Positions 994 to 59,711 of a stretch of 61,469 nt of DNA are shown piece after piece. Origin of the DNA: an uncultured Candidatus Saccharibacteria bacterium (GTDB lineage: Bacteria; Patescibacteriota; Doudnabacteria; UBA920). The notes under the pieces were generated by a model. It was not told where the DNA came from. It made no database searches and saw only the letters and a program-made list of their open reading frames with translations. The position numbers and the translations under genes were made by a program. How positions within the stretch are numbered: the first letter of the stretch is position 1; every line of letters starts with the position of its first letter. The stretch is taken from NCBI GenBank assembly GCA_964504715.1, contig CAZDEP010000008.1, positions 1-61,469 of the forward strand, written 5' to 3'.

Positions 994-1019
994 AAACACC
1001 TCCAAAAAAGGAGGTGTTT
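994..1019 (-). terminator. terminator-like hairpin 3' of the pilin-like gene
   Basis: AAACACCTCC-AAAAAA-GGAGGTGTTT forms a perfect 10-bp stem just downstream of the stop at 1032. The minus strand is T-rich after it. Confidence 0.5.
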
Positions 1020-1031
1020 GTGAGGAAAATT

Positions 1032-1565: not shown

Positions 1566-1666
1566 TTCTTTAATTCCTATACTTACCCACCAAACCTGTG
1601 GATATGTAACTTAAATATATGGGTATTATATACCCAATGGCCCATTGAACGCAAAAATCATCCTTA

Positions 1667-2242
1667 TTAAAGGATGATTTTATCTATAATACCGTATTTT
1701 TTTGCTTCCTCGGCAGTCAGAAAATAGTCGCGGTCCGTGTCCTTCTCCAGCCTGTTTACCGACTGTCCGGTATGCTTGGCTAAAATTAAATTGAGCTGAT
1801 TTTTTATCCTTAACATTTCCCGAGCCTGGATTTCCACGTCTTTCTGCTGGCCTTCCACTCCGCCCATGACCTGGTGTATTAGCACCCGGGCGTTAGGCAG
1901 AGCGAATCTTTTTCCCTTTCTCCCGCAAGCAAGCAATACTGCCGCCGCCGATGCGGCCTGCCCAATACAAATTGTCGACACATCGGCTTTTACGTGCTGA
2001 ATAGTGTCATATAAAGCCAAGGCTGAAGTTACACTGCCGCCCGGGGAATTTATATAAATTTTTATGTCTTCTTTACTGTTTTCCGCATCTAAAAACAGCA
2101 TTTGGGCTATAACCGTATTGGCTACGGCGTCGTCTATGGGTTCGCCCAAAAAAATGATTCTCTCCCTTAAAAGGCGACTGTAAATGTCATAAGCCCTTTC
2201 ACCCATGGCAGACTTTTCAATTACGATCGGTACAAGTGGCAT
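1667..2242 (-). CDS. clpP: ATP-dependent Clp protease proteolytic subunit
   Basis: The full-length protein matches the ClpP pattern ([39 protein letters not shown]). Confidence 0.95.
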
Positions 2243-2288
2243 AATTTTAAATAATGAATTATGAAGTAAGAATTATGAATTAGGGTAT

Positions 2289-3491
2289 TTATGAAAGTGT
2301 AGGTTGATCCGTTTTTGATTCGTCAACTGACTGTTCATCGGCAACATTTTCTGATGATGCATGAGGTTCGTCCCTTACTTCTTGCTTCTTACTTCCTGCT
2401 TCATTTTCCGCCGCCTTGTCACCACCCAAACTCACGCCGTTAATATCTATTTTCCAACCCGTTAAACGGGCTGCCAAGCGCACGTTTTGCCCGGCTTTGC
2501 CGATCGCAAGAGAAAGCTGGTCTTCCAAAACCTCAACTTTAGCTTCTTTATTCTCTTCGTTTAATTGCACGCTTAAAATTTTGGCAGGCGAGAGCGAGTT
2601 GGCAATAAATTTCACTTGATCTTCGTCAAACTGAATAATGTCTATTTTTTCGCCGCCCAGTTCCGCCATAACCGTCTGGACGCGGCTGCCTTTTTGGCCA
2701 ACGCAAGCGCCAATAGGATCTATGCCGTCTTGGTTTGCAATAACGGCAATTTTGCTTCTGGAGCCGGCTTCCCTGGCCACGGCCTTAATTTCCACGCTGC
2801 CGTTGTATATTTCCGGCACTTCAAGTTCAAATAATTTTCTGACCATGTCGGGATGGCAGCGGGAAAGGGTAATTTTTGGGCCCTTGGCCGCGGGCTCCAC
2901 GTGAAGAATTAAAACTTTCAAACGCTGGCCAATACTATAGCGTTCCCCGCGGATTTGTTCGCTCGGGAAAAGCACGCCTGTGGCCTTGCCCATGTCCACC
3001 AGCACCGTGTCGCCTTCTACCCGCTGGACTATGCCGTTCTGCAGCGTCCGTTCTTTGGCTTTAAAATCTGAAAATTGCATATTCCTTTCGGCTTCGCGCA
3101 GTTTTTGGATAATCACCTGCTTGGCGGTTTGCGCCGCAATGCGTCCGAAATTGGTGCCCGTGGAAGGCGTAATATCGGTTTTTATTATGTCGCCCACTTT
3201 ATAAGATTTCTTGATCTTTTTGGCTTCCTCTAAGGCAATCTGCTTTTGCGGATCGAATTCATTGGTTTCGTCCTCCGGATCGCCTTCGCTTTCCACCACT
3301 TCTTTTACGTCAAAAACTTTGACCGACAAATTTTCGGGGTCAAATTCCACCTGCACGTTCTGGTTTTTTTGGCCGTAATCTTTCCTAAAAGCCGCGGCCA
3401 AACTGGCTTCAATCATGCTTAAAATTTCGGCGCGGGGTATGCCTTTTTCATCTTCTATTTGCTGCAATGCCTGTTCTAATTGATCGTTCAT
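2289..3491 (-). CDS. nusA: transcription termination/antitermination factor NusA
   Basis: It has an S1-like segment (IVQRVEGDTVLVDMG) and two KH segments (GACVGQKGSRVQ, IGKAGQNVRLAARLTGW). I chose the internal ATG at 3491 (MNDQLEQALQQIEDEKGIPRAEIL is a typical NusA N-terminus). The long ORF to 3596 adds 35 aa that cover a hairpin repeat. Confidence 0.9.
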   Translation of the reverse strand: MNDQLEQALQQIEDEKGIPRAEILSMIEASLAAAFRKDYGQKNQNVQVEFDPENLSVKVFDVKEVVESEGDPEDETNEFDPQKQIALEEAKKIKKSYKVGDIIKTDITPSTGTNFGRIAAQTAKQVIIQKLREAERNMQFSDFKAKERTLQNGIVQRVEGDTVLVDMGKATGVLFPSEQIRGERYSIGQRLKVLILHVEPAAKGPKITLSRCHPDMVRKLFELEVPEIYNGSVEIKAVAREAGSRSKIAVIANQDGIDPIGACVGQKGSRVQTVMAELGGEKIDIIQFDEDQVKFIANSLSPAKILSVQLNEENKEAKVEVLEDQLSLAIGKAGQNVRLAARLTGWKIDINGVSLGGDKAAENEAGSKKQEVRDEPHASSENVADEQSVDESKTDQPTLS

Positions 3492-6025: not shown

Positions 6026-6110
6026 GCAAAAATGGAATTAAGAATTATGAAGTAAGTATTAAGTATGAACTGCAAATTCTTACTTCTTAATTCATACTTC
6101 CTACTTCTAG

Positions 6111-6170
6111 CTTATCTCGCATATTCTATTACCCTAGTTTCCCTAATTACGTGCACTTTTATTTCACCGG
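6111..6170. repeat. non-coding relic copy of the rny 3' end (60/60 identical to 6881-6940)
   Basis: A direct base-by-base comparison of the two 60-nt strings shows identity. Identity stops at both borders. Confidence 0.95.
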
Positions 6171-6172
6171 AG

Positions 6173-6892
6173 TTAATTTTCCCGGGTTTTTCTGGCCACC
6201 AAAAGCATATAGCCTTTGTCAATAATGTGCCTAACCTTTGTCTTCCGTGGAAGCTTTCCTAATTCTTCCACACTCATGCCTTCAAAAGTCGCTGTCTCTA
6301 CATCCATCTGCAATTCTTTTTCTAACAGGGAAACAATCTGCATGTTATCTACGGCCCGCTCCGGAGAAAAAACCTGCGAGTGCGTAAAGCCGCCCCTGTC
6401 AGGCGAATTAAAAATTAATAGCCTCCCTCCCACTTTTACGTATTTCAATATTTCTGGAACAACCTTCTTATAAGGCACATAATTTAAAACGGCGGTAAGA
6501 ATAACAGTGTCTACAACCGGCTCATTTTTTACTGGAATATCGTGGCCCCTTAGCCATTTGCGCGTATTTGCCAGCTCCCTTTTTTCGGCAAAACTTGGTC
6601 TTTCTATATTTCTCAAATCGGCTATAAACTGCCTCATACTTCCATCTTCCATATTTATAGCCGCTATATCTACGCGAATAATCTGAGTTTCAGGATATTT
6701 TATTAAGCTAGAAACCCCAAACCTTCCACTGCCAATATCTGCTATTACTTGGCCAAGTTTCTTTTCTTCCCTCAGCTTGTCTAATACCGGCACAACCCTC
6801 TCTTTTAAAAGGCCCAAATCGTATTCATGACCGGAAACCCAATCCTGTCGAAAAACTTTCTCTACACTTTCGGGATTGTACTTATCTCGCAT
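6173..6892 (-). CDS. methyltransferase-like protein (class I SAM-MTase fold, putative)
   Basis: VIADIGSGRFG resembles motif I, and there is a later LLIFNSPDRG segment. Its ATG lies inside the 60-bp repeat and overlaps the rny stop. Confidence 0.6.
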   Translation of the reverse strand: MRDKYNPESVEKVFRQDWVSGHEYDLGLLKERVVPVLDKLREEKKLGQVIADIGSGRFGVSSLIKYPETQIIRVDIAAINMEDGSMRQFIADLRNIERPSFAEKRELANTRKWLRGHDIPVKNEPVVDTVILTAVLNYVPYKKVVPEILKYVKVGGRLLIFNSPDRGGFTHSQVFSPERAVDNMQIVSLLEKELQMDVETATFEGMSVEELGKLPRKTKVRHIIDKGYMLLVARKTREN

Positions 6893-8420
6893 ATTCTATT
6901 ACCCTAGTTTCCCTAATTACGTGCACTTTTATTTCACCGGGGAATTTTAGCTCGCCCTGGATTTGGTTGGCTATGTCGCGCGCCATTTTTTGGGCGGCGG
7001 AATCGTCAATCTTTTCCGGCATAACAAAGACCCTTAGTTCCCTTCCGCCCTGAATGGCGTAAGATTTTTGCACACCTTCGTAATTGTTGGCAATATTTTC
7101 CAAATCCGTAAGGCGTTTTATGTAATTTTCCAAACTGTCTTTTCTCGCGCCCGGCCGGCTACCGGAAATGTTGTCGCAGACGTCCACAATAATTGCTTCA
7201 ATGCTATTGGCCCGTTCGGACTTGCCCGAAACGTCGGTGTCATGGTGGTGGGAAGCAATGGCTTCTTTTATGCGCGGATCGAGCGAGAATTTTTCCGCAA
7301 TTTTTACACCCAATTCCACGTGACTGCCTTCCAAATCCTGGTCAAGCGCTTTACCAATGTCATGAAGCAGGGCTCCCTGTTTGACTATGGAAACGTCCGC
7401 ACCCAGCTCCTCTGCCAAAAGCGCCCCAATTTTTGCCATTTCCACGGAGTGCCTTAAAATATTCTGCCCGTAAGAAGTCCTAAACATCATGCGCCCTACC
7501 AAATGAACCAATTTAGGCGGAAAGTTGGTAATGCCCAATTCGTAAACAGCCTGCTCCCCGGCCTGTTTGATTTGCTCATTAATTTCCGCCTTGCTTTTTT
7601 CGTACGCTTCCTCTATGCGGGCCGGATGTATGCGGCCGTCGGAAAGCAATTTTTCCAAAGTCAATTTGGCAATGTGCCGGCGTATGGAATTAAAGCCGGA
7701 AATTACCACGCTGTCCGGCGAATCATCGATTAAAATTTCCACGCCCATCATTTGCTCAAAAGTGCGGATATTGCGGCCTTCCTTACCAATAATCCTGCCC
7801 TTCATTTCTTCGCTCGGGATTTGGACTACGGTGGTGGTAACTTCGCTGGTGACTTCGCTTGAGACCCTTTCCAAGGCTTGGGCGACAAGGTTTCGAGCTT
7901 CCCGGTCGGCGCCTTCGTAGGCCTCATTAAGCAGCTTCTTGTGGAGTTCCACCATTTCTTCCTTAACCAGTTTTTCGGTGTTATCCAGTAAAACTTTTTT
8001 TGCCTCTTCCCGGGTTAAACCGGCAATTTTTTCCAAATTTTCCAGCTGTTTGGCCTTAATCTGCTTTATTTCTTCCTGCAAAGTTTTAACTTCCTGGTGC
8101 TTTATTTCCAAGTCCTGCTTTTGTCTTTCCACAGTCTGGGATTTGCTTTCCAGTTCTTTCTCCTTCCTGTCTACGCGCTCTTCAAAACGCACCATTTGCT
8201 GCCGGAATTCCGACTCCTGTTTTTTTGCCTGCTCAATAATTTCCAAAGATTTGGTTTTGGCCTCCAAAAGCAGCTCCTTCTCCTTATTCTTAGCTTCCTC
8301 CATAAGGCGTTCCGCCCTTGCTTCTGCCGAACCCACTTTTTTTGCGGCCATCTGTTGGCGCACAAAAAAACCGGCCGCCGCGCCAATAACGACTCCCAGC
8401 AAAATATATATGCCAATCAT
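6882..8420 (-). CDS. rny: ribonuclease Y
   Basis: N-terminal TM helix, long coiled coil, KH domain (GKEGRNIRTFE) and HD domain (LLHDIGKA, ASHHHD). Confidence 0.95.
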   Translation of the reverse strand: MIGIYILLGVVIGAAAGFFVRQQMAAKKVGSAEARAERLMEEAKNKEKELLLEAKTKSLEIIEQAKKQESEFRQQMVRFEERVDRKEKELESKSQTVERQKQDLEIKHQEVKTLQEEIKQIKAKQLENLEKIAGLTREEAKKVLLDNTEKLVKEEMVELHKKLLNEAYEGADREARNLVAQALERVSSEVTSEVTTTVVQIPSEEMKGRIIGKEGRNIRTFEQMMGVEILIDDSPDSVVISGFNSIRRHIAKLTLEKLLSDGRIHPARIEEAYEKSKAEINEQIKQAGEQAVYELGITNFPPKLVHLVGRMMFRTSYGQNILRHSVEMAKIGALLAEELGADVSIVKQGALLHDIGKALDQDLEGSHVELGVKIAEKFSLDPRIKEAIASHHHDTDVSGKSERANSIEAIIVDVCDNISGSRPGARKDSLENYIKRLTDLENIANNYEGVQKSYAIQGGRELRVFVMPEKIDDSAAQKMARDIANQIQGELKFPGEIKVHVIRETRVIEYAR

Positions 8421-9899: not shown

Positions 9900-10946
9900 T
9901 TACAATTGATTTACCACTTTTGAATCTAAACTCACTAATACTTTTCGTAAATCTTCAGGAACAGCACTCTCCGCTTCTATCCACGTCCCATCCGGCAAAC
10001 GAACTTCAATTTTTTTTGCATGCAGGAATTGGCGGCCTAAACCTTCCAATTCAGTTTGTTTGCCGCCATAGAGCTGGTCACCCATTAAAGGATGGCCAAT
10101 CGAATTCATGTGCACCCTAATCTGGTGCGTTCTGCCTGTATGCAATTTTACCAGAAGAAGGGTGCATTGGTCAATACCTTGACTTCGCTCCGCACTTTCA
10201 GCCCCCTTCCCCCCATCTTTTCCCTTTTCTCCCCTTTCCAGATACTCTAAAACTTTATATTCCGTTACCGCCTCCTTGGCATCTTGCGGGTCTTTGGTCG
10301 TCTGTTTCCGAAAGTCCGTTTTGCTTTTGCCCATGGGGGTTTGTAGGACCCCTTGCGGCTTTTCCACCCTGCCTTTTACCAACGCCAAATATTCCTTTTT
10401 AACTTTTCGCTCCGCAAAAGCATTTTTTAAATACTCATACATTGCCTGGGTTTTAGCGACTAAAATGACCCCGCTGGTATCCTTGTCCAAGCGGTGGACT
10501 ATGCCAGGCCGGTTTTCCTCGCCCACCACTTCTATTCCTTTTGCGCCAAAGTCGGATCCCTGCCCGTCCGGCAGGCGGGCGCCTTTGCCGGAAAAATGAT
10601 AAAGAAGTGCGGAAGCCAGCGTCTCTCCCCTAAACCCCGCGCCCGGATGCACCACCATCCCCGCCGGCTTATCTATGATTAACAATCCATGATTATCATA
10701 AAGTATTTTCAATGGTGTATTAGTTGCCTTTATCCCCGCTGATAACTCACTAGCTGACTGCTGATAAACGACCACGTCTTCTTTCCTGACCACGAATTTA
10801 CTTTCTTTGACAACTTCACCATTAACCAAAACCGTCCCCGCTTCTATGTCGCGCTGAATTTGAGACCGAGAAATACTGGGTAGTTGCTCGGCTAGATATT
10901 TATCGAGTCTGGTCTTTAAATCTTGAACTATAAAATCTGTTTTCAT
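9900..10946 (-). CDS. RluA/RluD-family pseudouridine synthase with S4 domain
   Basis: S4-like N-terminus, HRLDKDTSGVILVAK catalytic motif and TGRTHQIRVH. It carries a G/K/E-rich insert (RGEKGKDGGKGAESAERSQG). Confidence 0.85.
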   Translation of the reverse strand: MKTDFIVQDLKTRLDKYLAEQLPSISRSQIQRDIEAGTVLVNGEVVKESKFVVRKEDVVVYQQSASELSAGIKATNTPLKILYDNHGLLIIDKPAGMVVHPGAGFRGETLASALLYHFSGKGARLPDGQGSDFGAKGIEVVGEENRPGIVHRLDKDTSGVILVAKTQAMYEYLKNAFAERKVKKEYLALVKGRVEKPQGVLQTPMGKSKTDFRKQTTKDPQDAKEAVTEYKVLEYLERGEKGKDGGKGAESAERSQGIDQCTLLLVKLHTGRTHQIRVHMNSIGHPLMGDQLYGGKQTELEGLGRQFLHAKKIEVRLPDGTWIEAESAVPEDLRKVLVSLDSKVVNQL

Positions 10947-11007
10947 GGATCAATATAACAATGTAACAAGATAACATTTAATCAAGTATGTTATTTTGTT
11001 AAATTGT

Positions 11008-11739
11008 TTAATTGTTATTTTGAATAAGATCCGGTCTCCTTTTTTTTGTCCGTTCAAGTACCTCATTTTGCCGCCAGTCGGCAATATTTTTGTGGTGGCC
11101 GGTGAGTAAAACTTTCGGCACCCTCATCTCCTTAATCTTAGCCCTTAGCCCTATACCCTTAGCCCTAAATACTTCCGGCTTCGTATATTGCGGATATTCA
11201 AGCATATTTTCACTGAATGATTCTTTTTCAACCGATTCGTCCTTTCCCAAAATTCCGGATCTCAAACGCATTACCGCTTCACAAAGAACCAATGCGGGCA
11301 GCTCGCCCCCCATTAAGACATAATCGCCGATTGATATCTCCTCATCAACAAACCCCCTAACACGCTCGTCGAAGCCCTCATACCTGCCGCAAACGAAAAT
11401 TAAATTGTCATATTTGGATAATCGTACCGCCTCTTTCTGTGTAAATTTTTTCCCTTGAGGCGTGAGCAAAATAATTTTAGACTTAGCCCTTAGCCCTTTA
11501 CGCTTAGCCCTCAAGATGGCTTTCAGCAATACATCAGCTCTCAGCACCATCCCCACCCCTCCGCCGTAAGGCCGGCCGTCTACCGTACCTCTTTTATCTA
11601 TCCCGAATTTGCGCAAATTTACAGCCTCGAGCTTTAAAAGCTTGAGTTTAACCGCCCTTTTAACAATGCCAAAATTTTCCACAAAATCTTCAACAAATTT
11701 TGGGAAAAGAGTGATAATTTTTATACTGAGTTTTGACAT
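11008..11739 (-). CDS. trmD: tRNA (guanine37-N1)-methyltransferase
   Basis: IITLFP, YGGGVGMVL, CGRYEGFDERV and GDYVLMGGELPA. It contains two GGGCTAAG-repeat inserts. Confidence 0.95.
   Translation of the reverse strand: MSKLSIKIITLFPKFVEDFVENFGIVKRAVKLKLLKLEAVNLRKFGIDKRGTVDGRPYGGGVGMVLRADVLLKAILRAKRKGLRAKSKIILLTPQGKKFTQKEAVRLSKYDNLIFVCGRYEGFDERVRGFVDEEISIGDYVLMGGELPALVLCEAVMRLRSGILGKDESVEKESFSENMLEYPQYTKPEVFRAKGIGLRAKIKEMRVPKVLLTGHHKNIADWRQNEVLERTKKRRPDLIQNNN
11137..11168. repeat. GGGCTAAG-type short tandem repeat inside trmD (copy 1)
   Basis: CTTAGCCCTTAGCCCTATACCCTTAGCCCTAAA encodes ..RAKGIGLRAKIK.. Confidence 0.8.
11482..11510. repeat. GGGCTAAG-type short tandem repeat inside trmD (copy 2)
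   Basis: CTTAGCCCTTAGCCCTTTACGCTTAGCCC encodes ..LRAKRKGLRAKS.. Confidence 0.8.
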
Positions 11740-16590: not shown

Positions 16591-16699
16591 TAAAAAAACA
16601 AAAGTTAAAAAATGATAATTAAGAAATATAAAATAAAAAGCAGGATCGGAGTGGCAGCTCTTAATTCTTACTACTTACTTCTTAATTCTTAATTCTTTT

Positions 16700-17470
16700 T
16701 TAAAAGAGATTCTTCTTAAGCGCGTCTTCCGCTGCCGAAACTTCGGCTTCCTGCTTGGAAGGGCCAACGCCCCTCCCGACTTCCTTCTCGGCCACGAAAG
16801 CCGCCAGAACAAAAGTCTTGTTGTGGTCCGGGCCGGTTTCGCTTATAACCCCATAGTGCGGGGTTATGCCTGACTTTTCCTGGACCATTTCCTGCAGCTT
16901 TGATTTGGGGTCCATATACTTCCCGTCTTCTATAATATTTTCCAACTCCACTAAAATTTCGCGGCCAATAAAATTGGTGCAGGCCTGGTAACCCAGATCC
17001 AAATACATTGCGCCAATTAACGCCTCTATGCAGTTGGCAAGTATAACCTGCCTGGCCCTGCCCGTGTCTTTGGCCTCGCCCCGGCTCATAAGCAAAAACT
17101 GTTCCAAACCCAGGCGGGAAGCAATGGAAGAAAGCATTTTATAATTTACCAAAGCGGAACGGAAGTTGGTCAGTTCGCCTTCCGGATGGCTGTAATTTTT
17201 GTACAAATATTCGGTCGCGCACAATTCCAAAACGGCATCGCCCAAAAATTCCAGGCGCTCGTTATGCGGCAAATGAAAACCCCGGTTCTCGTTTAAATAC
17301 GACCTGTGCGTAAAAGCCGAAAGGTACAAGTCGGGGTCTTTAATTTTGGTTTGAAGAATTTTTTCCAATTCTTCTAAATCTAGGGTAGGCACGTCGTAGA
17401 AAATTTCCAAATCCCAATTTCCCTGCCTCGCCGGCAGGCAGGCAATTTCCAAACAAATTCCAAATTCCAA
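16700..17470 (-). CDS. rnc: ribonuclease III
   Basis: FTHRSYLNE, ERLEFLGDAVLEL and a C-terminal dsRBD. The longest ORF starts at a TTG and its first ~26 codons cover a repeat hairpin, so a GTG start at 17392 is plausible. Confidence 0.9.
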   Translation of the reverse strand: MEFGICLEIACLPARQGNWDLEIFYDVPTLDLEELEKILQTKIKDPDLYLSAFTHRSYLNENRGFHLPHNERLEFLGDAVLELCATEYLYKNYSHPEGELTNFRSALVNYKMLSSIASRLGLEQFLLMSRGEAKDTGRARQVILANCIEALIGAMYLDLGYQACTNFIGREILVELENIIEDGKYMDPKSKLQEMVQEKSGITPHYGVISETGPDHNKTFVLAAFVAEKEVGRGVGPSKQEAEVSAAEDALKKNLF

Positions 17471-19966: not shown

Positions 19967-20116
19967 TTATAAAAAGTGTACCTATGGGTTTAATCGCCCG
20001 GTTGATAAACTTAGGTGTTAACGATAAGCCAACTTGCCCACCGAAGCTTTATGCGAAGGCGGGTTCCGCCACCCGAGCGTAGACAAGCCCAAATATATTA
20101 CCATTTCTGTTAGGAC

Positions 20117-20145
20117 TTGACAAGCCTTCATTTTTCTGATATAAT
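20117..20145 (+). promoter_or_regulatory. consensus sigma70-type promoter
   Basis: TTGACA (20117-20122), a 17-nt spacer, then TATAAT (20140-20145). Both hexamers are perfect. Confidence 0.65.
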
Positions 20146-20484
20146 ATACGGTCAAATTTATATAGCCCTTAAAGGGCCCCAAATTTCCTAGGAAATTTGG
20201 GAAAGGGACACCAAGACGAAAGCCGAAATTTACGAATTTTATTCGCAAATAAAGGCTAAAATCTTGGATGGCCCGTCCTCGTGGTGGGGAAAACCCAGTG
20301 AAGATTTACCTTTATTTATGCGCTTTTTTGAAGCCATAAACATAGGCGAATACCCACCACACTTCACTGGGTTTTTCTTATCAGGAGAAATCTTGGTAAG
20401 GCTCTGGCAAGGTTAGACCTACCAGAGAAATTCGCTCTTTAACAACTTAAAAAAATAAAGAGCAGAAAGAAAGGAGGTGGCCTT

Positions 20485-21141
20485 ATGGCCCATCCTCCAA
20501 ACCCGCCCGGCGGCGTTGCCCCTGCAAGGGCAACCACCGGGCAACAGGGCGGGGGCACCCCCGCCGCCCAAACCACCCCTTCCGGGCCGACCCGGAAGGT
20601 GAAGGTGTTCGTTTCGGCCCCGACGTTCGACACGTCGGGAACCATTCAGGAAAACGTCTTTGACGTCTCAGTCATAACGACGGATCAAGACGGCAATGGC
20701 GTTTCGGAAGACGCCCGAGTTACGGTGGCCAACCACCATTTCGGAACTCGGGGCGTTCGCACAACTAACGGACGGTTTTCGGAAGAAGTCCGGGTTCGAT
20801 CCGGACAAACGGGCGTTGTCTATCAGGCCGTTTTGAACAACGGTCAAACAGACGAAAAGCCCCTCCCCGCTCCCGCAGCTCCCGCCACACCTCACCACCA
20901 AACTCGGGGCGAAAAAGCCTTGGCGATTTTTTACGCCTATGGCTTAAAAATCGCTTCCGTGTTAGCCGGCCTGATCGCGCTGCTCTTTTTTAAAGCCGCG
21001 ATTTTTGGGCCTTACGGGCTTGATATGGGCGAGAACGAAAGAAGTTATCTCGTCCTCGGCGGAGTTTTTTTGGCTGTCGCCATTGCTTTCGCTTCGAAGG
21101 CATTTGGCGGCGGACACACCCCATCCGGAGGAGGACATTAA
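20485..21141 (+). CDS. hypothetical GC-rich protein: P/G-rich N-terminus, Ig-like beta domain, C-terminal two-TM hairpin
   Basis: Strong RBS AAGGAGGTG 6 nt before the ATG. TM helices IASVLAGLIALLFFKAAIF and LVLGGVFLAVAIAFA are separated by the loop GPYGLDMGENERS. Confidence 0.7.
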   Translation: MAHPPNPPGGVAPARATTGQQGGGTPAAQTTPSGPTRKVKVFVSAPTFDTSGTIQENVFDVSVITTDQDGNGVSEDARVTVANHHFGTRGVRTTNGRFSEEVRVRSGQTGVVYQAVLNNGQTDEKPLPAPAAPATPHHQTRGEKALAIFYAYGLKIASVLAGLIALLFFKAAIFGPYGLDMGENERSYLVLGGVFLAVAIAFASKAFGGGHTPSGGGH

Positions 21142-21143
21142 CA

Positions 21144-21914
21144 ATGACCTTCCTTAAATGGTCCGCTGGACTCTCAGCGGGCCTCGTCATCATCGTTGCA
21201 GCCTTGAGCCTGAGCTCTTTGCTCGTCACCGACCGTTCCCTTTCTCAACACTGGAACGCGCCGCGCCTAACCATCCCCGAGGCCCAGCGAGAGCTGACTG
21301 CCAAGGCGGAAGACAAAATCGCCCGTGAAATCGGGAGAATTAAAAGTTTCCGCAGCTACGGAAACTCACCCGACGCTGTCGTTGCTGATGCCAAAAATCG
21401 CGCACGGCAACTTTCCGGCGCGGAAGATGGCCTAAGCCGGCTTCCGGGGCACGTGTCTCACGACACTCCCGGCACCACCGCTCCCACCTCGGGATATCCC
21501 ACCACGGACCTTCAGGAATTTGAAGTTTCGCCTGAAGGCGAAAACCGGTGGGTGGTTCAACTCGATGCCCGCCAAGCATGGGCGGGCACGGGAATTAGTC
21601 TAAGCCCTGGCGACACCGTTATCGCCGTGGCAGACGGATTGGTCTGCAGCCCGCCGGACCCGTGTTCGGGCCCGAGCGGGATGTACGGACCCGCCCGGAC
21701 GTCTCGCGTTCGGCCGGAAGAATTTCCGGCGCAGAACGCGCGATTCAAAGCGCTCATCGCCCGCGTGGGCGATGGGCAACCGTTCCAACTCGAGCGCGAG
21801 TTCACCGCCATTGGTGGCGGGGAACTACGCCTCATGTCCAATATCCGCTTGCCATATCTTCACGAGGCAAGCGGCGGGTACAGGATCGCTTTACAAGTGA
21901 TCCGGAAAAAATAG
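21144..21914 (+). CDS. hypothetical GC-rich membrane-anchored protein with PA-IL/LecA-like beta-sandwich domain (tentative)
   Basis: N-terminal signal anchor. The C-terminal pattern GDTVIAVADG...GPSG...FKALIARVGDG...GELRLMSN...SGGYRIAL recalls LecA-type lectins. It starts 2 nt after the upstream stop. Confidence 0.6.
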   Translation: MTFLKWSAGLSAGLVIIVAALSLSSLLVTDRSLSQHWNAPRLTIPEAQRELTAKAEDKIAREIGRIKSFRSYGNSPDAVVADAKNRARQLSGAEDGLSRLPGHVSHDTPGTTAPTSGYPTTDLQEFEVSPEGENRWVVQLDARQAWAGTGISLSPGDTVIAVADGLVCSPPDPCSGPSGMYGPARTSRVRPEEFPAQNARFKALIARVGDGQPFQLEREFTAIGGGELRLMSNIRLPYLHEASGGYRIALQVIRKK

Positions 21915-21992
21915 GAGGGCCCATGCTAACCCTTTGTAGGGGCCCGACGGGGAAGGGACAGGCTTTTTAAGCCTTTCCTTTCCCCTTCAACC

Positions 21993-22026
21993 AAAAACCC
22001 TCCCGATTTTTTCGGGGGGGTTTTTG
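21993..22026. terminator. bidirectional terminator between convergent operons
   Basis: AAACCCTCCCG-ATTTTTT-CGGGGGGGTTT hairpin flanked by A- and T-runs. Confidence 0.6.
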
Positions 22027-22048: not shown

Positions 22049-22879
22049 TTAAACCTTTGCTTCTTTTTGCACGTAGCCTATGGGATTGTCGCCGCTTAGG
22101 GTGTTGGTAATTATGGTAATTACAGTTACGGCAAACACCACGGCAATTATGCCAATTACGGCATTGACTATGGTTTTCCTGCCCTGTTCGGCCGCTTCCT
22201 CGTTGCCAGCGGAGGTCATATATTGGTAACCGCCAATAATCAAATACACAGTGGCAACTATGCCCGCAAAAGTAAACAGCCACTTTAAGACAATAGTAAC
22301 CAGTTCAAACACGGAAGATGCGCCAACTATACCGGTGCTGGTCTTGGGCACCGGCACGCACACGCCGTTTATATAGCAAAAATTCGGCGCCGGGCACTGG
22401 TCATCGCTCTTTTGGCAGCCGGCCGCTGCGCCTCCTGTCGAAGTATTTCCTTCGGATCTACCGGAGGGTATTCCTGTATTACCACCGCCACTCTGGGAAG
22501 CTTTACAAACGGGATCATTGGGATTAGTCGAACAACATTCTTGTCCAATAAATCCATAATCCGCACATCCGCCTGAAGAATTTTCAATGCAAGTATATGT
22601 TTTACGACTGCAAAATAAACTCTTATTGGCGTCACAAAGATCTTGAGAAGTACTGCAGCTTTGTCCCTTTTGTAATGAACCTGCAACGCCGGAATCGATA
22701 ACACACTGACCTGAACCAGAATCGCAAACTAAACTTCTACTTCCATCGCAGAATTTCGTAACATCATCGCAAGGCTCTCCTACATTTAAGCCAGTCTGTG
22801 CAAAAGCCAATTGCGGGGCAAGCACTATTATTGTAATCGCGGTTGCGAAATATATTTTATATTTTGGTTTTATTGACAT
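22049..22879 (-). CDS. secreted cysteine-rich protein with C-terminal two-TM GGYQYMTSAGNEE module (T4SS-pilin/VirB2-like, putative)
   Basis: Signal peptide ...APQLAFAQ, 16 Cys in repeated C..C..SLxC..C modules, and the C-terminus IIGGYQYMTSAGNEEAAEQGRKTIVNAVIGIIAVV. Confidence 0.75.
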   Translation of the reverse strand: MSIKPKYKIYFATAITIIVLAPQLAFAQTGLNVGEPCDDVTKFCDGSRSLVCDSGSGQCVIDSGVAGSLQKGQSCSTSQDLCDANKSLFCSRKTYTCIENSSGGCADYGFIGQECCSTNPNDPVCKASQSGGGNTGIPSGRSEGNTSTGGAAAGCQKSDDQCPAPNFCYINGVCVPVPKTSTGIVGASSVFELVTIVLKWLFTFAGIVATVYLIIGGYQYMTSAGNEEAAEQGRKTIVNAVIGIIAVVFAVTVITIITNTLSGDNPIGYVQKEAKV

Positions 22880-22887
22880 ATGCTTTA

Positions 22888-23286
22888 CTAGCCGAATATC
22901 CCGCCCGTACCGGCAATGGTATTAATTACCACGTTTATAATCACGTATGACAAAATAATTACCACCACGCCGATTATGGCGTTGACCAAAGTTTTCTTGC
23001 CGCCTTCGGCCTGCTCTTCGTTGCCGCCTGCGGTTATGTACTGGTAACCGCCGTAAATTACGAACACCACGGCCAGGGCACCGGCAACCAGCAAAAGCAG
23101 CCTAATTACGTTGGCGATAAGCCCGTTGGAACCGGTTAAAGTTTGAGAACCCGCCACACCGGTAAAAGGGAACAGGGCGCGTATGCCTAAAAGCCCCTGC
23201 TGAACCTGCTGCTGCGCCAAGGCAACGGCCGGCAACAGAGAGGCTATGCTTAAACTAATAATTTGGATTAGTTTTTTGTGTCTCAT
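22888..23286 (-). CDS. minimal paralog: signal peptide plus two-TM GGYQYITAGGNEE module
   Basis: IYGGYQYITAGGNEEQAEGGKKTLVNAIIGVVVIILSYVIINVV. It ends 8 nt from the start of the downstream gene. Confidence 0.75.
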   Translation of the reverse strand: MRHKKLIQIISLSIASLLPAVALAQQQVQQGLLGIRALFPFTGVAGSQTLTGSNGLIANVIRLLLLVAGALAVVFVIYGGYQYITAGGNEEQAEGGKKTLVNAIIGVVVIILSYVIINVVINTIAGTGGIFG

Positions 23287-23376
23287 AAAATGTTTTTAAA
23301 ATTGAATCCGGGCAGACAATGGCAAAAGTTATCTAACCGGATCCGGCCCGCATAAAAAATAATGCGGGCCTAAAAA

Positions 23377-23796
23377 TTACGGACCGGTGTTTCCACCGCC
23401 GCCTACGTTGGTAACCAAATTGGCAACCACGTTGACTATTACGTAAGACAACACGATTATAACTATACCAATAAGCGCGTTAACGGCAGTACCTTTGCCT
23501 TTTTCAGCCGCTTCTTCGTTGCCGGCCGAGGTAATGTACTGGAAACCGCCCAAAATAAGGAACAATACGGCAACACCGAAGGCAATGCCGAGCAGCCAGT
23601 TAATAACAGTCCGAATAAGGCCGTTAATACTGGTGCCCGCGTTACAGTTAAGTCCGGTGGAAGGGTCGCATTGGAGGCCCCTGTTCAGCTGGCCGTGGGC
23701 CACCAAAAGAGGAGCGAACAACAAAAGGCTCACTAAAATAATTTGCGCCACTTGCAGCCAGTCGATTTTTCTTAGTATTTGTTTCACTCTTGTCAC
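23377..23796 (-). CDS. paralog: signal peptide, short Cys pair, two-TM GGFQYITSAGNEE module
   Basis: ILGGFQYITSAGNEEAAEKGKGTAVNALIGIVIIVLSYVIVNVV. The ORF-track start is GTG. Confidence 0.7.
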   Translation of the reverse strand: MTRVKQILRKIDWLQVAQIILVSLLLFAPLLVAHGQLNRGLQCDPSTGLNCNAGTSINGLIRTVINWLLGIAFGVAVLFLILGGFQYITSAGNEEAAEKGKGTAVNALIGIVIIVLSYVIVNVVANLVTNVGGGGNTGP

Positions 23797-23976
23797 CCCC
23801 TCTCCAGACCTCTTTCCCTGTTCTCCCTTCCTTCCCCTCCCTCCGAATGGGAGGGAATCTTTTTTGATTCCCCTCCCTATAAGGGGAGGGGTAAGGGGAG
23901 GGTTAAAAAGGGAACGAGGAATGAGGGAATTACTTTTAGAATTATACTATACTTTTTCAGTTTTTCAAAACTTGAA

Positions 23977-24507
23977 TCAGCGAGTGCCGTCGGCTGGAGG
24001 CGTAACCGGCTGCTGGCCACCTTGGGCCGGAGCTTGGGGCGAACCGGTATTGCCGCTCTGCTGGGTCGCGGGCGCGGAATTGTTCGTCTTGGATCCGCCC
24101 GTCCCTAAGGTACCCACGATTATTCTAACTATGGTCGCTGCTAATATTATTATAACCAATCCAATTACCGAAGTAGTCAAAGTTTTCCTGCCTGCTTCGG
24201 ACTGTTCTTCGTTGCCGCCGGAAGTTACATACCTGAATCCGCCTATCATAATAAATATAACTGCCACGCTGCCGGCAAACAGAAAAAACAGGTCTATTAC
24301 TTTTGTAACCAAAGTCCTGGCGTCACAAATTACCGGCAAGCCTTCTATGGCATTGGAGGATGAACCGTTATTGTATTGAATAGTAAACCACTTTAAAAAT
24401 TTCTCGCAGTTGCTATTTACGCCGGATGTTTGTGCCGCGGCAACAAACGGTAAAAACAGGCTCAATGCCAAGGCGAGCGAAATAAAAAGTTTTTTAAGTT
24501 TTTGCAT
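23977..24507 (-). CDS. paralog: signal peptide, small ectodomain, two-TM GGFRYVTSGGNEE module, Q/P-rich tail
   Basis: MIGGFRYVTSGGNEEQSEAGRKTLTTSVIGLVIIILAATIV, followed by the tail ...ATQQSGNTGSPQAPAQGGQQPVTPP. Confidence 0.75.
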   Translation of the reverse strand: MQKLKKLFISLALALSLFLPFVAAAQTSGVNSNCEKFLKWFTIQYNNGSSSNAIEGLPVICDARTLVTKVIDLFFLFAGSVAVIFIMIGGFRYVTSGGNEEQSEAGRKTLTTSVIGLVIIILAATIVRIIVGTLGTGGSKTNNSAPATQQSGNTGSPQAPAQGGQQPVTPPADGTR

Positions 24508-24568
24508 TGGGAGTATTTATTAAACTTAATGTCTCTTCATAATTCAAGGGAAAGACAGAGCTTTTAAG

Positions 24569-25795
24569 CTACTGATTTGTCTCTTGGTTCTTTACAACCG
24601 GCGTCTGGGAGTCGGGAAAATCCGGCACGGTAACGCCGAGCAGGCTTTGAACTATGGCTATTATGCTAAAAGATAGCATGGCCACTACAACTCCCAAAAC
24701 CGCCCAGGTAATGGTCTTTTTGGCCGCCAAATAAGCCTCTTCGTTGCCCTGGGATAAAACCATTCTAAACCCGCCGATAATTATAAACACCACAGCCCAC
24801 AGGGCAACTATGGCCAAAAACCCTTTGGCAATGGTAAGGATAGTGCCGGTTAAGGATTCGGTAGGAAGGGGGTTGTATAAAGTTTCGTTTAAAGTCGGAT
24901 CGGCCTCACCACCAGGCTGGTCGCCGGGGTTTTGTGTCTGTGGCAGATCGCCGGGATTGGTCGTCTTTGCGGGCGTGCCAGGGGTAGCATCTCCCAATCC
25001 TTTTACCAAAAAATTTGTCGTAACAGAACCAAGCCTTAACGTAGTTCCCGCTTTCCATGCTTCAACCCTGATTTCATTGGAGCCATTTTTATAATTATTT
25101 TGAGTGGTTACATTAATAGCAGGAGAGCGAAAAGTGTTTTTAAACTCACCAATCCCCATAGTTTTGTTATAAATAGATTTATTATTTACCCAAATCTCCA
25201 CAAATACATTTTCGGCCGACTGCAAGGGCGCATCCCCAAAAATCTTAAACACAATAGGGTCATTTGCGGAATATTCGCCTTTTTGGGGCTCCAAAACCAC
25301 TGTCATCGAATTTCCGGTTGCTGAGGTACTGGAGACACTGACTGTGAATGAATTGCTTCTGCCCGTGTTACCGTCGCCTAAAAACTGTGCAAAAGCGGTA
25401 AATTCAATTGCATTTTGGTTGGATAGATTATTTTTTATGGAGCTAAAAGAATTTTGCAAATTCAAACCGTAACTACCTGAAAATTTTCCATCAATAATAT
25501 TTAAGGTTGCTCTCCCTATGGTTAAAAAAGTTCCATTTTTATTTTTATACTGAAAGTCAATACTTGCGCTCCTGGCGCAAGTATTGGCGTCCCCCATAGC
25601 TGTTCCCGATACATACAATGTCACCTGGTCATTGGATGACACAGACCTTTTGTCAGCGGTCAAATCAATTGTATAACTGCATGCGGCGTAGGCGACTTTC
25701 GGTAAAGACAAAAACGCCAAATTGGCGAAAATTGCCACGCTTGCGATTGCCCATGCAAAAATTTTTTTCATATGAAATTTCCCATTCACTTTCAT
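24569..25795 (-). CDS. paralog: signal peptide, two beta-rich (Ig-like) repeats, Pro-rich linker, two-TM GGFRMVLSQGNEE module
   Basis: IIGGFRMVLSQGNEEAYLAAKKTITWAVLGVVVAMLSF. Its ATG overlaps the stop of the upstream gene (TAATG). Confidence 0.75.
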   Translation of the reverse strand: MKVNGKFHMKKIFAWAIASVAIFANLAFLSLPKVAYAACSYTIDLTADKRSVSSNDQVTLYVSGTAMGDANTCARSASIDFQYKNKNGTFLTIGRATLNIIDGKFSGSYGLNLQNSFSSIKNNLSNQNAIEFTAFAQFLGDGNTGRSNSFTVSVSSTSATGNSMTVVLEPQKGEYSANDPIVFKIFGDAPLQSAENVFVEIWVNNKSIYNKTMGIGEFKNTFRSPAINVTTQNNYKNGSNEIRVEAWKAGTTLRLGSVTTNFLVKGLGDATPGTPAKTTNPGDLPQTQNPGDQPGGEADPTLNETLYNPLPTESLTGTILTIAKGFLAIVALWAVVFIIIGGFRMVLSQGNEEAYLAAKKTITWAVLGVVVAMLSFSIIAIVQSLLGVTVPDFPDSQTPVVKNQETNQ

Positions 25796-26232
25796 TATTT
25801 ATTGCATTTTGCGTGCTCGGTGGGATTGTCGTGCACAATTAAATAATTTAACGGATCTTTTAAGTTCAGCCTGCATTCTTTTTTCTCCGCGCCCAGTAAA
25901 ATATAATTTACTGCCGTGTTGATTAAAATAAAGGCCATCATGGTAAAAACGAATCCCACTACAGCCTGGGTCAAGGTATTTTTATGTTTAGTTATAGATT
26001 CCTCGTTACCCATAGTTACCACCATCCAAAAACCGGCGCCGATAATTTGATAAACCGCGTAAATTCCGGCCAAACCAATAAGCGTATTGGTAACCCGTAT
26101 GGATAAAACAAATACATCTTTAACAGTGCAGGGGGATTCCCCCGGGCCGCCGCATGGCACCAACCCCCGCGCGCTGGCAAAAAGAGGGGTTATAAGTAAA
26201 ACTAGGCTAAAAATTAGGATTTTTGATTTCAT
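25795..26232 (-). CDS. divergent paralog: signal peptide, CGGPGESPC, two-TM ..VVTMGNEES.. module, Cys-containing tail
   Basis: IIGAGFWMVVTMGNEESITKHKNTLTQAVVGFVFTMMAFIL. Confidence 0.65.
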   Translation of the reverse strand: MKSKILIFSLVLLITPLFASARGLVPCGGPGESPCTVKDVFVLSIRVTNTLIGLAGIYAVYQIIGAGFWMVVTMGNEESITKHKNTLTQAVVGFVFTMMAFILINTAVNYILLGAEKKECRLNLKDPLNYLIVHDNPTEHAKCNK

Positions 26233-26315
26233 TTAGGCTTATTTTTTTCATTATAACACCTTTTTTAAATTATCCTAATTACTTTACTGCTCTGACATGG
26301 TAATCCGTTTATCGT

Positions 26316-26352: not shown

Positions 26353-26790
26353 TTATGCATATTTGGGCGGCGTATCGGAAAGTAGTGTTCGACGGCGGTT
26401 CTGAAACTTATCCCAGGCTTCAGCTAAATTAAACAGTTGGCGGGAAATTTTATCATAATCGTCAATTAACTGATTACAAAGTCCGGGATTGATGTTATAA
26501 AGATCTTTGCATTGTTCCAGGCCTACAATAGTTTCATTGGATTCCGTGTGGGCATCATCAATATATTTTTGGAAACCTGCTTTTTGATGTTTTTTCGTAT
26601 AACCCTCCGCGATGAGCCTCGGCACAGCCTTTGTGGATCTGGAAAGCTGGTCTACTAAATCATATTTTTCCTGAGAAGGTAGCTTGGGCAATATTTCCTT
26701 ATGGACGGTCAACATGGCCTTATAGGCATTTTGATAAACGTCCAAGTCTCTAAAACTTCTTATAGGTTTTCTATTATTAATCTCTTCCAT
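26353..26790 (-). CDS. four-helix-bundle protein (23S rRNA intervening-sequence protein / Avd-like family)
   Basis: FRDLDVYQNAYKAMLTVHKEILPKLPSQEKYDLVDQLSRSTKAVPRLIAEGY is typical of the TIGR02436/PF05635-type family. Confidence 0.8.
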   Translation of the reverse strand: MEEINNRKPIRSFRDLDVYQNAYKAMLTVHKEILPKLPSQEKYDLVDQLSRSTKAVPRLIAEGYTKKHQKAGFQKYIDDAHTESNETIVGLEQCKDLYNINPGLCNQLIDDYDKISRQLFNLAEAWDKFQNRRRTLLSDTPPKYA

Positions 26791-45709: not shown

Positions 45710-46906
45710 CTATAGCTTGTTGGATTTGAACTTGGAACCTTTAAAACCGGTAAGTACGCTGGATTCAAAAGAATAATTAACCAACTTTTTTTGCTGAGAT
45801 TTTTCTTGGGCAAATTTTATTAGCTCCTTAAGCAAGTCCGGAAATTCCAGTCCGGAAGCCTGCCATAAGTGATGGTAAAGCGTACCGGGTAAAGGGTTTA
45901 CCTCGTTGGCAAAAAACTTATTAGTTGAACGATTTACCAAAAAGTCTACCCGCGCAATACCACTGCATTCCAAAATTTTATAAACTTGGATTGCCGCTTC
46001 CTTTATGCCGGCTGTCATAGTCGCATCCAGACGTGCCGGAATAACCACGCTTCTCTGGCTTTTGCCGGTTTGGGCGCCGCCCTCTTTTAAGTATTTGTCC
46101 TCAAAACTGAATAAATCCAAAGTGAACAACGACTCCTGCAGCTCCGAGGCTTTGGGCTGGTCATTACCAATTAAGCAACAAGTCACGTCCATTAAATCTT
46201 CCACTAATTCCTCTACCACAATTTTGGAATCATAATAAGCCGCAACCTCCACTTTTTGTTCAAGTTCTTTTTCGTCTTTTGCCTTCCCAATCCCTATTGA
46301 TGACCCAAGATGGGCAGGTTTTACAATCAGCGGATATTTGAGGCTTTTGCCGATGTCTTCAATTATGGCTTTTTTGCCATCTGCTTGATCCCACAGGGTT
46401 TTATAAAAATATGTAAACTTAGTGGTTGGAATCCCGGCGTCCCGCATCATTATTTTGGTTAAAGCCTTATCCATGGAAATTGCCGAGGCCGTTACGCCGC
46501 AACCCACATAAGGCACGCCGAACATTTCAAACAAGCCCTGAATAGTGCCGTCCTCGCCGTATGTGCCGTGCAGGGCGGGGAAAGCCAAATCTATAGTTAC
46601 GGTCTTGCCCATTATGCCTTTTTTCCTAAACACCATTTTACCCACGGACTCTTCCATATCCAAAAAGTATTCCTTGTACTCGCCCTGCTCTTCAATTTTT
46701 TTGCCGGGATCCGCAAACTTTTTTAGGTCGCCCAAGTCTTCCCCCAGGCACCACTTCCCTTGTTTGGATATATAAACCGGGACCACGTTATATTCCAAAC
46801 CTTTCAGGCCGGAAATAATCAGGTTGGCGGTAATTATGGAAATGTCATGCTCCACACTTCCGCTGCCAAAAAACACACCGATGGTTAAATTTGAATTTTG
46901 AATCAT
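45710..46906 (-). CDS. ddl: D-alanine--D-alanine ligase
   Basis: FGSGSVEHDISIITA, HGTYGEDGTIQG, and ATP-grasp segments. Confidence 0.9.
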   Translation of the reverse strand: MIQNSNLTIGVFFGSGSVEHDISIITANLIISGLKGLEYNVVPVYISKQGKWCLGEDLGDLKKFADPGKKIEEQGEYKEYFLDMEESVGKMVFRKKGIMGKTVTIDLAFPALHGTYGEDGTIQGLFEMFGVPYVGCGVTASAISMDKALTKIMMRDAGIPTTKFTYFYKTLWDQADGKKAIIEDIGKSLKYPLIVKPAHLGSSIGIGKAKDEKELEQKVEVAAYYDSKIVVEELVEDLMDVTCCLIGNDQPKASELQESLFTLDLFSFEDKYLKEGGAQTGKSQRSVVIPARLDATMTAGIKEAAIQVYKILECSGIARVDFLVNRSTNKFFANEVNPLPGTLYHHLWQASGLEFPDLLKELIKFAQEKSQQKKLVNYSFESSVLTGFKGSKFKSNKL

Positions 46907-47067
46907 GAATTTAGAATTATGAATTTAAATAATAATCTAATATTTTTTTATAGTTTTTAAATTACCCCACAAATTCATCCACACTCATTTACGTGTTGTT
47001 TTGAATATTGGTTACTACCGAGATATCAATTCCTTACTTCATAATTCTAACTTCTTAATTCTTGACT

Positions 47068-59622: not shown

Positions 59623-59711
59623 TAAGAAGCAAGAAGTAAGTATTAAGGAACCAAAATCTTCCTGGCCTTACTTCTTAACTCATAATTCATACTTCTTACT
59701 TCCATTACGAA

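Follow-up and report, generated by a model that had tools for sequence, protein, structure and literature searches.

Six predicted VirB2-like pilin genes, two with variable ectodomains, in a chromosomal array of a Doudnabacteria-like bacterium

Organization of the array and its shared module

We analyzed a stretch of 61,469 nt (contig CAZDEP010000008.1, assembly GCA_964504715.1), hereafter called the window, from the chromosome of a Doudnabacteria-like bacterium of the candidate phyla radiation (CPR; Patescibacteria). Six consecutive, co-directional genes occupy positions 22049 to 26232 of its minus strand. As detailed below, profile searches place their products in the T4SS_pilin family, as an array of the CPR type, interpreted here as a VirB2-like pilin set of a type IV secretion system (T4SS). 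We designate the genes F, E, D, C, B and A by position, from upstream to downstream (Table 1). A first-pass annotation, made from the nucleotide sequence alone, had listed these genes, and their coordinates and lengths agreed with the list of open reading frames (ORFs) of the window; the true start of gene C is probably the second GTG at position 23787, where its orthologues begin, which would give a protein of 136 aa.

Hydropathy profiles of all six proteins contained three hydrophobic segments, namely, an N-terminal signal-like helix and two C-terminal helices separated by a short loop. Candidate cleavage sites of the AxA type followed the first helix when read heuristically (AFA/Q, ALA/Q, AHG/Q, AAA/Q, AYA/A and ASA/R). 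The signal peptide and two-helix architecture noted in the first-pass annotation were thus recovered, and the loop sequences that it quoted were exact. The C-terminal modules were pairwise 28-56% identical across 80 aligned residues, with the residues G-N-E-E invariant in all six. Leave-one-out module profiles recovered every member (E = 1e-13 to 3e-28), and a profile built from the six modules, when scanned against all six frames of the window, matched those six alone. The likeness among the six modules is far beyond chance. A plus-strand ORF at 20485-21141 was considered as a seventh member on account of a 'MGENERS' loop and two C-terminal hydrophobic helices; it was rejected, as the module profile missed it even at E <= 10 and it lacks a signal peptide. 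Outside the module, no significant mutual similarity was found among the six proteins (best blastp E = 0.06), in agreement with the earlier description of these parts as unrelated.

All 28 cysteines of the six proteins lie in segments predicted to be outside the membrane, with an even number in each segment, and none occurs in a signal peptide, helix or loop. This placement fits a hairpin with both termini outside and with disulfide-bonded external parts. The protein of gene A contains the 16 cysteines previously counted, arranged as two C-x6-C-x7-C-x6-C repeats containing 'SLxC', a CC-containing unit and a conserved membrane-proximal unit of four cysteines.

We examined AlphaFold models of the proteins of genes E and C. 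In the model of E (mean pLDDT 77), a signal helix is followed by two confident beta-sandwich domains (aa 40-155 and 158-265, pLDDT ~90), a disordered linker and a helical hairpin (315-347 and 352-386); the two beta-rich immunoglobulin (Ig)-like repeats and the Pro-rich linker that had been read from the sequence accordingly have counterparts in the model. Foldseek searches with E returned generic matches to tandem Ig-like or fibronectin type III-like domains (E ~1e-7, TM-scores 0.2-0.37), including transglutaminase beta-barrels, the Vibrio cholerae matrix protein RbmA, PECAM-1 and complement MG domains. The model of C consists of a signal helix and a hairpin (helices 54-86 and 91-126, pLDDT ~90).

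Two junctions within the array, both already noted, are present in the sequence: a TAATG stop/start overlap of genes F and E at 25795 and an 8-nt gap (22880-22887) between genes B and A. These suggest translational coupling and hence point to co-expression. With respect to transcription, the number of promoter-like sites in the array region was not above shuffled expectation, and the site upstream of gene C stands as a consensus match only. The hairpin directly downstream of gene C is a possible attenuator, and transcription of the array likely ends at the hairpin and T-run after gene A. Together, the promoter-like site 5' of C, the hairpin 3' of C and the terminator-like site after A weakly support the possibility that C is the most strongly expressed gene. 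Immediately downstream of the promoter-like site, the 180-nt gap between D and C (23797-23976) also harbors direct repeats rich in C and T (ccctcccctt...) together with an inverted repeat (CCCTCCC-7 nt-GGGAGGG); these possibly form a regulatory leader for gene C.

Table 1. Genes, variable segments and putative signals of the array, with positions in the window. Lengths in relatives were taken from 13 complete arrays; the ranges become slightly wider once partial arrays are counted.
Feature	Position	Strand	Description	Length in relatives	Character in relatives
Gene F	25795-26232	-	145 aa: signal peptide, short N-terminal part with Cys pair, hairpin module aa 35-114, 31-aa C-terminal tail with second Cys pair	145-189 aa	Conserved Cys-pair C-terminal tail
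Gene E	24569-25795	-	408 aa: signal peptide aa 1-37, two Ig-like beta-sandwich domains 40-265, Pro-rich linker 271-313, module 315-386, short tail	143-527 aa	N-terminal part varies, 53-415 aa
Hypervariable ectodomain cassette of gene E	24983-25670	-	Unmatched against L035 by blastn		
Gene D	23977-24507	-	176 aa: signal peptide, 32-aa N-terminal part with Cys pair, module aa 58-137, 39-aa Q/P-rich C-terminal tail	133-395 aa	C-terminal tail varies, 1-257 aa
Gene C	23377-23796	-	139 aa as listed; minimal pilin	128-140 aa	Minimal
Gene B	22888-23286	-	132 aa; minimal pilin, zero cysteines	126-179 aa	Minimal
Gene A	22049-22879	-	276 aa: signal peptide, 16-Cys ectodomain, module aa 185-264, 12-aa tail	153-301 aa (133-301 aa in relatives overall)	N-terminal part varies, 74-220 aa
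Variable N-terminal part of gene A ectodomain	22427-22798	-	Unmatched against L033 by blastn		
Extended -10-like element	26250-26258	-	TGTTATAAT, 18 nt 5' of gene F start; putative function, read from sequence		
Promoter-like site	23941-23968	-	TTGAAA-16-TATAAT, 11/12 consensus matches, in the 180-nt gap 5' of gene C		
GC-rich hairpin	23345-23370	-	9 bp, GGCCCGCAT-8 nt-ATGCGGGCC, directly 3' of gene C stop, without T tract		
Terminator-like hairpin and T-run	22002-22016	-	Downstream of gene A		

Assignment to the T4SS_pilin family

The first-pass annotation had compared the topology of these proteins with that of the T4SS_pilin (PF18895) and TrbC/VirB2 (PF04956) families. Five of the six proteins passed the gathering score of PF18895 (26.6 bits): A (38.1), B (47.0), C (53.1), D (44.3) and E (40.6). 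Gene F scored 19.4 bits, under the cutoff; a profile of the other five modules matched it at E = 1.5e-13, and its orthologue in L002 carries a recorded PF18895 match. The leader peptide, two hydrophobic helices and short polar loop required by PF18895 were found in hydropathy profiles, in the AxA-type sites and as helices in the models of E and C. The T4SS_pilin half of the earlier proposal was therefore upheld for five of the six proteins at the curated cutoff.

Among NCBIfam families, the best match was NF045849 (Mbov_0395, a pilin-like conjugal transfer protein of a Mycoplasma integrated conjugative element, ICE), for which A scored 39.3 bits and the others 17-31 bits, all under the cutoff of 40 bits. 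A Pfam scan found no match to the type IV pilus N-terminal methylation motif (PF07963) in the six proteins. A separate gene for a type IV pilus-type pilin, which does carry PF07963, is located at 1032-1565, 20 kb from the array, and is unrelated to the T4SS_pilin family. A PHROGs scan of the six proteins and two neighboring ORFs also gave zero matches.

The module profile matched 69,526 cluster representatives at E <= 1e-3. The best 150 of these matches were dominated by proteins with multiple modules, such as P0088 (820 aa), P0089 (552 aa), P0125 (1775 aa) and P0132 (188 aa), in which 2-17 pilin hairpin modules stand in tandem in one polypeptide; in P0088, P0089 and P0132 the modules are preceded by a single signal peptide. 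Such proteins may represent either pilin 'polyproteins' formed by concatenation or membrane proteins whose polytopic structure is made of pilin hairpins.

A fixed set of six positions in a conserved chromosomal slot

We scanned GTDB species genomes with protein C and obtained 27 loci. The syntenic loci and homologues came from metagenome-assembled genomes named Candidatus Doudnabacteria or Patescibacteria group. In ~20 species-level genomes, the same slot was observed with the gene order of the window, namely, DinG-like exonuclease, DksA-like, LspA, ComM, GalU, SBP, the array, FtsH, RNase III and SMC. Occurrence at one chromosomal site between housekeeping genes in so many species points to vertical inheritance.

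The order F-E-D-C-B-A was likewise kept in these ~20 Doudnabacteria-like genomes. A comparison of best and second-best blast scores separated F, E and C, and D and A less sharply; B was ambiguous. Orthologues of gene F were 65% and 42% identical, including the tail, those of gene B were 69% and 53% identical, and gene E had ~25 full-length orthologues. Each position retained its own character (Table 1). Gene C was the most conserved, with a median module identity of 78% compared with 48-60% at the other positions (13 genomes), and is the candidate major subunit. Judged from these comparisons, the six genes are distinct subunits maintained together and not interchangeable copies. Such positional orthology argues for a heteromeric structure with division of labor and against simple antigenic variation.

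Several genes around the array and its relatives are arranged differently. The gene at 26353-26790, which encodes a four-helix bundle of the 23S-rRNA-IVS/bAvd-like type, lies 5' of the array in the window and in close relatives, and inside the array in L010, L017 and L024; it seems to move independently of the array. On the other side, a GC-rich patch (20001-22000; GC 0.549 compared with ~0.45 in the flanks) separates the array from tRNA-Leu and FtsH. It contains two plus-strand ORFs (the rejected candidate at 20485-21141 and a second at 21144-21914) with zero Pfam, NCBIfam and PHROG matches, and other genes fill this slot in relatives. A homologue of 21144-21914 adjoins a solo E-like pilin gene in L003. 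Contig L004 carries two identical 419-aa E-like pilin genes in inverted orientation beside ftsZ, at 565-1824 (+) and 1975-3234 (-), and the related contig L003 has one copy (10001-11260); the inverted pair may reflect a duplication that can invert, or it may be an artefact of assembly.

Replacement of the ectodomains of E and A

We compared the window with L035 and L033, two close relatives that carry the same array. The F, D, C and B proteins of L035 were 98-100% identical to those of the window (B, 100%), and the flanking DNA was 95-98% identical. Within gene E, however, ~690 nt had no blastn match. In the E protein, identity was ~95% through the signal peptide and first mature residues, ~20% over both Ig-like domains and 100% from the start of the Pro-rich linker through to the end of the protein. 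In L033, the flanks were 83-92% identical, and both the E ectodomain and the N-terminal part of the A ectodomain failed to align (E, 401 aa; A, 216 aa). For the gene A region, blastn found no match in L033 to positions 22427-22888, whereas 22049-22426 was 92% identical, and protein alignment showed that the 216-aa allele has a different Cys-rich N-terminal part.

A further E allele, P0006, is a mosaic: its residues 1-119 matched domain 2 of the allele in L035 at 86% identity, and its residues 116-339 matched the L033 allele at 98%. Dozens of database proteins (236-583 aa) join an E-type module, at 55-94% identity, to unrelated N-terminal parts. A search with gene A found 12 relatives only, one of which covered more than 50% of the length.

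These alignments indicate that the ectodomains of E and A are swapped as cassettes between near-identical strains, with one allele being a domain mosaic. Boundaries as sharp as these, in near-identical backgrounds, could not arise by gradual divergence, which suggests homologous recombination through the constant signal-peptide and linker/module sequences as the probable route of replacement. As aligned here, the turnover is allelic and occurs mainly at positions E and A, while a third position, D, varies in its C-terminal tail. The first-pass annotation had proposed a shared module with swapped display domains. Turnover against a constant module was indeed found in syntenic loci; the implied role of all six paralogs as interchangeable carriers was not. 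The paralogs form six stable positional orthologue groups, and the exchange is concentrated at two positions.

T4SS genes in the window and in relatives

The earlier statement that the window lacks secretion genes was confirmed. Pfam scans covering every ORF of 90 aa or more detected no VirB4, VirB6, VirD4 or relaxase in the 61 kb, and CPR VirB4, VirB6 and PrgI sequences used as tblastn queries found no match in the window. Pfam scans of the window also detected no integrase or type IV coupling protein (T4CP). The remainder of the window is an ordinary CPR chromosome encoding, among others of this sort, ClpP, NusA, RNase Y, SMC, FtsH, RecA, FtsK, Mur ligases and IF-2.

In L029, a more distant Patescibacteria genome, the same GalU-SBP slot contains seven PF18895 genes followed immediately by two TrbL/VirB6-like genes, PrgI (VirB3-like), a gene for a 243-aa protein and a VirB4-type ATPase, homologues of which bear the source name 'VirB4-like conjugal transfer ATPase'. 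One paralog of this array passes PF04956 (32.1 bits). A gene without annotation at 11806-12336 of L036, which is the Embleya sp. plasmid NZ_CP108778.1 (273859-274389), encodes a protein with a signal peptide and a PF18895 score of 72 bits; it heads a canonical actinomycete conjugative T4SS operon (TrbL-like, PrgI, XF1762, VirB4-like, T4CP, Replic_Relax and NlpC/P60). This operon is at odds with statements in reviews that Gram-positive T4SSs are without VirB2-like pilins.

According to the available part of a recent survey (Quinonero-Coronel et al. 2025, PMC12102498), pilins lie close to virB4 in only 1135 of 1948 assemblies, and the one genome of the class Doudnabacteria visible in its Table S1 has VirB4. 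Because pilins are remote from virB4 in ~40% of assemblies and the L029 array adjoins VirB6, PrgI and VirB4, the missing local T4SS genes are ordinary and do not make the array a separate system devoid of machinery.

Proposed function and alternatives

We consider that the array is a chromosomal, VirB2-like T4SS pilin set of a Doudnabacteria-like CPR bacterium, proposed to form a surface filament, and we give this explanation a probability of roughly 0.6. Each protein would be exported by Sec and its signal peptide cleaved, after which the two helices would enter the membrane as a hairpin, leaving both termini outside and the GNEE...(K/R)KT loop on the cytoplasmic side. The subunits might then, by analogy with VirB2/TraA pilins, be extracted from the membrane and polymerized into a surface filament by a VirB4/VirB6/VirB3 (PrgI) machine whose genes would lie elsewhere in the genome. 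In the solved F- and T-pilus structures, the loop lines the lumen and the termini face outward. If the same arrangement holds here, the surface would be decorated by the N-terminal domains that E and A carry, along with the C-terminal tails of D and F. The two minimal and most conserved proteins, C and B, might build the shaft, E (tandem Ig-like) and A (Cys-rich) might be less abundant subunits placed sparsely or terminally, and D (C-terminal tail) and F (disulfide tail) might be accessory. E, A, D and F would display outward-facing domains for contact with host cells, and the exchange of E and A cassettes would serve adaptation of host recognition. Both pilus formation and an adhesin function of the array are inferences.

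Several observations weigh against this explanation. The TrbC half of the first-pass comparison did not hold at the curated cutoff of PF04956 (27.9 bits), under which all six proteins score (C, 26.1; D, 25.9; A, 20.4 bits); the E-values for these three range from 1e-5 to 6e-4 (C and D, ~1e-5), and such significant matches under the cutoff indicate remote homology and not curated membership. Foldseek searches of the gene C model against the PDB gave a best E of 1.3, with no VirB2/TraA or other pilin among the top 50, although a bare helical hairpin is too simple to discriminate, and the module profile had zero matches among PDB sequences. In the absence of a structural match, the VirB2 relationship is carried by sequence profiles and gene context. 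VirB4, VirB6, PrgI and T4CP are absent not only from the window but also within 10 kb of any of the ~20 window-type arrays. The promoter and terminator sites are consensus matches. In the T4SS-pilin literature searched, as far as the accounts were available, a pilus built from PF18895 proteins was reported for no organism. Moreover, a VirB2-type helical filament would not readily pack if each subunit bore a 270-aa ectodomain, and E and A may therefore never polymerize.

This last point leads to the main alternative, which we regard as unlikely, namely, that the hairpin does no more than anchor these surface proteins in the cytoplasmic membrane, where they form no filament and work without any T4SS, either as a complex or as single adhesins. 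Large ectodomains suit a membrane-anchored adhesin better than a tightly packed pilus, and both the distance of the T4SS core genes from the window-type arrays and the lack of a structural match to solved pilins are compatible with it. However, the minimal proteins B and C would display almost nothing outside, yet C is the most conserved of the set and B orthologues retain 53-69% identity. The strictly conserved GNEE loop, which is predicted to be cytoplasmic, suggests interaction with a partner; homologous arrays or single genes lie directly 5' of VirB6, PrgI and VirB4 in L029 and in the actinomycete plasmid; and the pilin series of Southlakia is essential together with the T4SS. Less probable still is an antigenic or phase-variation array, as proposed for the VirB2 paralogs of Bartonella and Anaplasma, in which the genes would be alternative versions of one pilin, expressed one at a time or exchanged by gene conversion. 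This interpretation has been offered for CPR arrays in the available part of PMC12102498, and the nucleotide identity of the paralogous modules (61-71% over 146 nt) could support gene conversion. However, every position is a distinct orthologue group with order and features kept across ~20 species, the overlap at 25795 and the 8-nt gap point to co-expression, and the variation resides in the ectodomains of two fixed positions and not in which paralog is present.

Two further explanations were dropped. Diversity-generating retroelements (DGRs) are common in CPR bacteria, and the gene at 26353-26790 could be viewed as an Avd-like accessory, with E and A as the targets: it matches PF05635, its orthologues also match PF22296 (bAvd), and a weak NCBIfam match to DivGenRetAVD was found (E = 0.096). 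Nevertheless, Pfam scans of the ORFs found no reverse transcriptase in the 61 kb, and no template/variable repeat pair matching the E or A ectodomain was found in the window. The alleles differ by wholesale replacement, indels and domain mosaics and not by adenine-specific substitutions in a short variable region, and the position of the putative accessory gene changes among relatives; DGR-driven variation is therefore largely refuted. The array as a remnant of an ICE, that is, pilin-like transfer genes left after decay of the element, is essentially excluded. The near-cutoff NF045849 score of protein A and the occurrence of PF18895 genes on conjugative plasmids would agree with such an origin, but the conserved chromosomal synteny, which reflects vertical inheritance, rules it out; in addition, integrase, relaxase and T4CP genes are absent from the window, and the six reading frames are all intact and conserved.

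Returning to the filament, we propose a more specific form of it tentatively, as possible but clearly less probable than the filament itself: a heteromeric T4SS pilus of a monoderm with dedicated display subunits at positions E and A, perhaps also at D, in which a host-recognition part is joined directly to the VirB2-like polymerization module. These domains would circulate in the population as recombining cassettes, including domain-level mosaics, between the constant signal-peptide and module flanks. The T4SS of CPR/Patescibacteria is essential in the one species tested, with a function described as completely unknown. The exchange of E and A cassettes beside genes that are 98-100% identical is the pattern expected of a host-specificity determinant. 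If this proposal holds, the array would be a host-range determinant of CPR epibionts and, among conjugative-type pili, the first example of an 'adhesin-on-pilin' design. Should the proteins fail to polymerize, they would constitute a family of hairpin-anchored variable surface proteins.

Repeats elsewhere in the window

An exact 60-nt direct repeat (6111-6170 and 6881-6940) brackets an ORF at 6173-6892 (239 aa, no Pfam match at 1e-5), and the RNase Y gene extends at its 3' end into one of the two copies; the region 6111-6940 has the appearance of an insertion that duplicated its target. A family of AT-rich intergenic repeats (CTTACTTCTTA... and the complement GAAGTAAGAATTATGAA) occurs in both orientations at no fewer than six gene boundaries (2242-2281, 6028-6069, 16609-16702, 46886-47068, 51366-51450 and 59612-59702).

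Comparison with known systems

The array had initially been regarded as novel, but such arrays have been described since 2018. In the parts of the reports available to us, McLean et al. 2018 (bioRxiv 10.1101/258137) reported, for Saccharibacteria including TM7x, arrays in which 4-6 small VirB2-related proteins each have a signal peptide; Wang et al. 2023 (PMC10633639) found that a predicted pilin series in the T4SS cluster of Southlakia epibionticum ML1 is essential; and Quinonero-Coronel et al. 2025 (PMC12102498), using PF18895 and PF04956, counted 441 arrays, each with 2-11 pilin genes, among 383 assemblies of Patescibacteria, with a mean paralog identity of 25% and a maximum of 54%. A 2025 review refers to six 'structurally conserved, sequence-divergent VirB2-like pilins' in Southlakia epibionticum, and in published co-culture data T4SS pilins rank among those genes of unknown function that Patescibacteria express most highly. 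The array analyzed here shares with these the tandem arrangement of PF18895/VirB2-like genes with signal peptides, the copy number (4-11, with six in Southlakia and here), the low paralog identity (28-56% here), the CPR host and a chromosomal location without a relaxase. It differs in lying outside a T4SS cluster, in its own conserved slot between SBP and FtsH. In addition, the published pilins are described as small, and fused ectodomains of 150-400 aa, positional orthology and cassette-like allelic replacement are not mentioned in the available parts of those reports.

The VirB2/TraA/TrbC pilins of diderm T4SSs have in common with the present proteins the leader peptide, the hydrophobic two-helix hairpin and the short polar loop, together with significant PF04956 matches under the cutoff. 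In contrast, the present proteins, as judged from the model of C, have no Foldseek match to them, belong to a monoderm and bear large N- or C-terminal extensions; we know of no such extensions on characterized VirB2-type pilins. The Embleya pilin belongs to the same Pfam family and has the same topology, and its operon shares with L029 the order pilin, VirB6-like, PrgI, VirB4-like. It is, however, a single copy without an ectodomain on a mobile element that has a T4CP and a relaxase-like gene, whereas the window contains six chromosomal genes with no DNA-transfer genes nearby. Mbov_0395 (NF045849) of the Mycoplasma ICE represents a related family.

The VirB2 arrays of Bartonella and Anaplasma, as cited in the available part of PMC12102498, also consist of tandem divergent VirB2 paralogs thought to vary the host-facing surface. 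Those arrays belong to diderm, effector-translocating systems and vary among paralogs, whereas here the orthologue groups are fixed and allelic variation occurs in fused ectodomains. By analogy, chaperone-usher tip adhesins, the minor pilins of type IV pili and the Ig-like tip adhesins of sortase pili combine a major subunit with variable, receptor-binding minor or tip subunits. The present array resembles them in combining a conserved polymerization module with variable Ig-like binding domains and in having one minimal, conserved and probably abundant subunit; the folds and assembly machines are unrelated. The tandem pilin array itself is accordingly of an already published kind and not a new system. 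Relative to the available parts of the literature searched, the features that appear undescribed are the fixed six-position set in a conserved non-T4SS slot, the large ectodomains on a VirB2-like module and the cassette-like mosaic turnover between near-identical strains.

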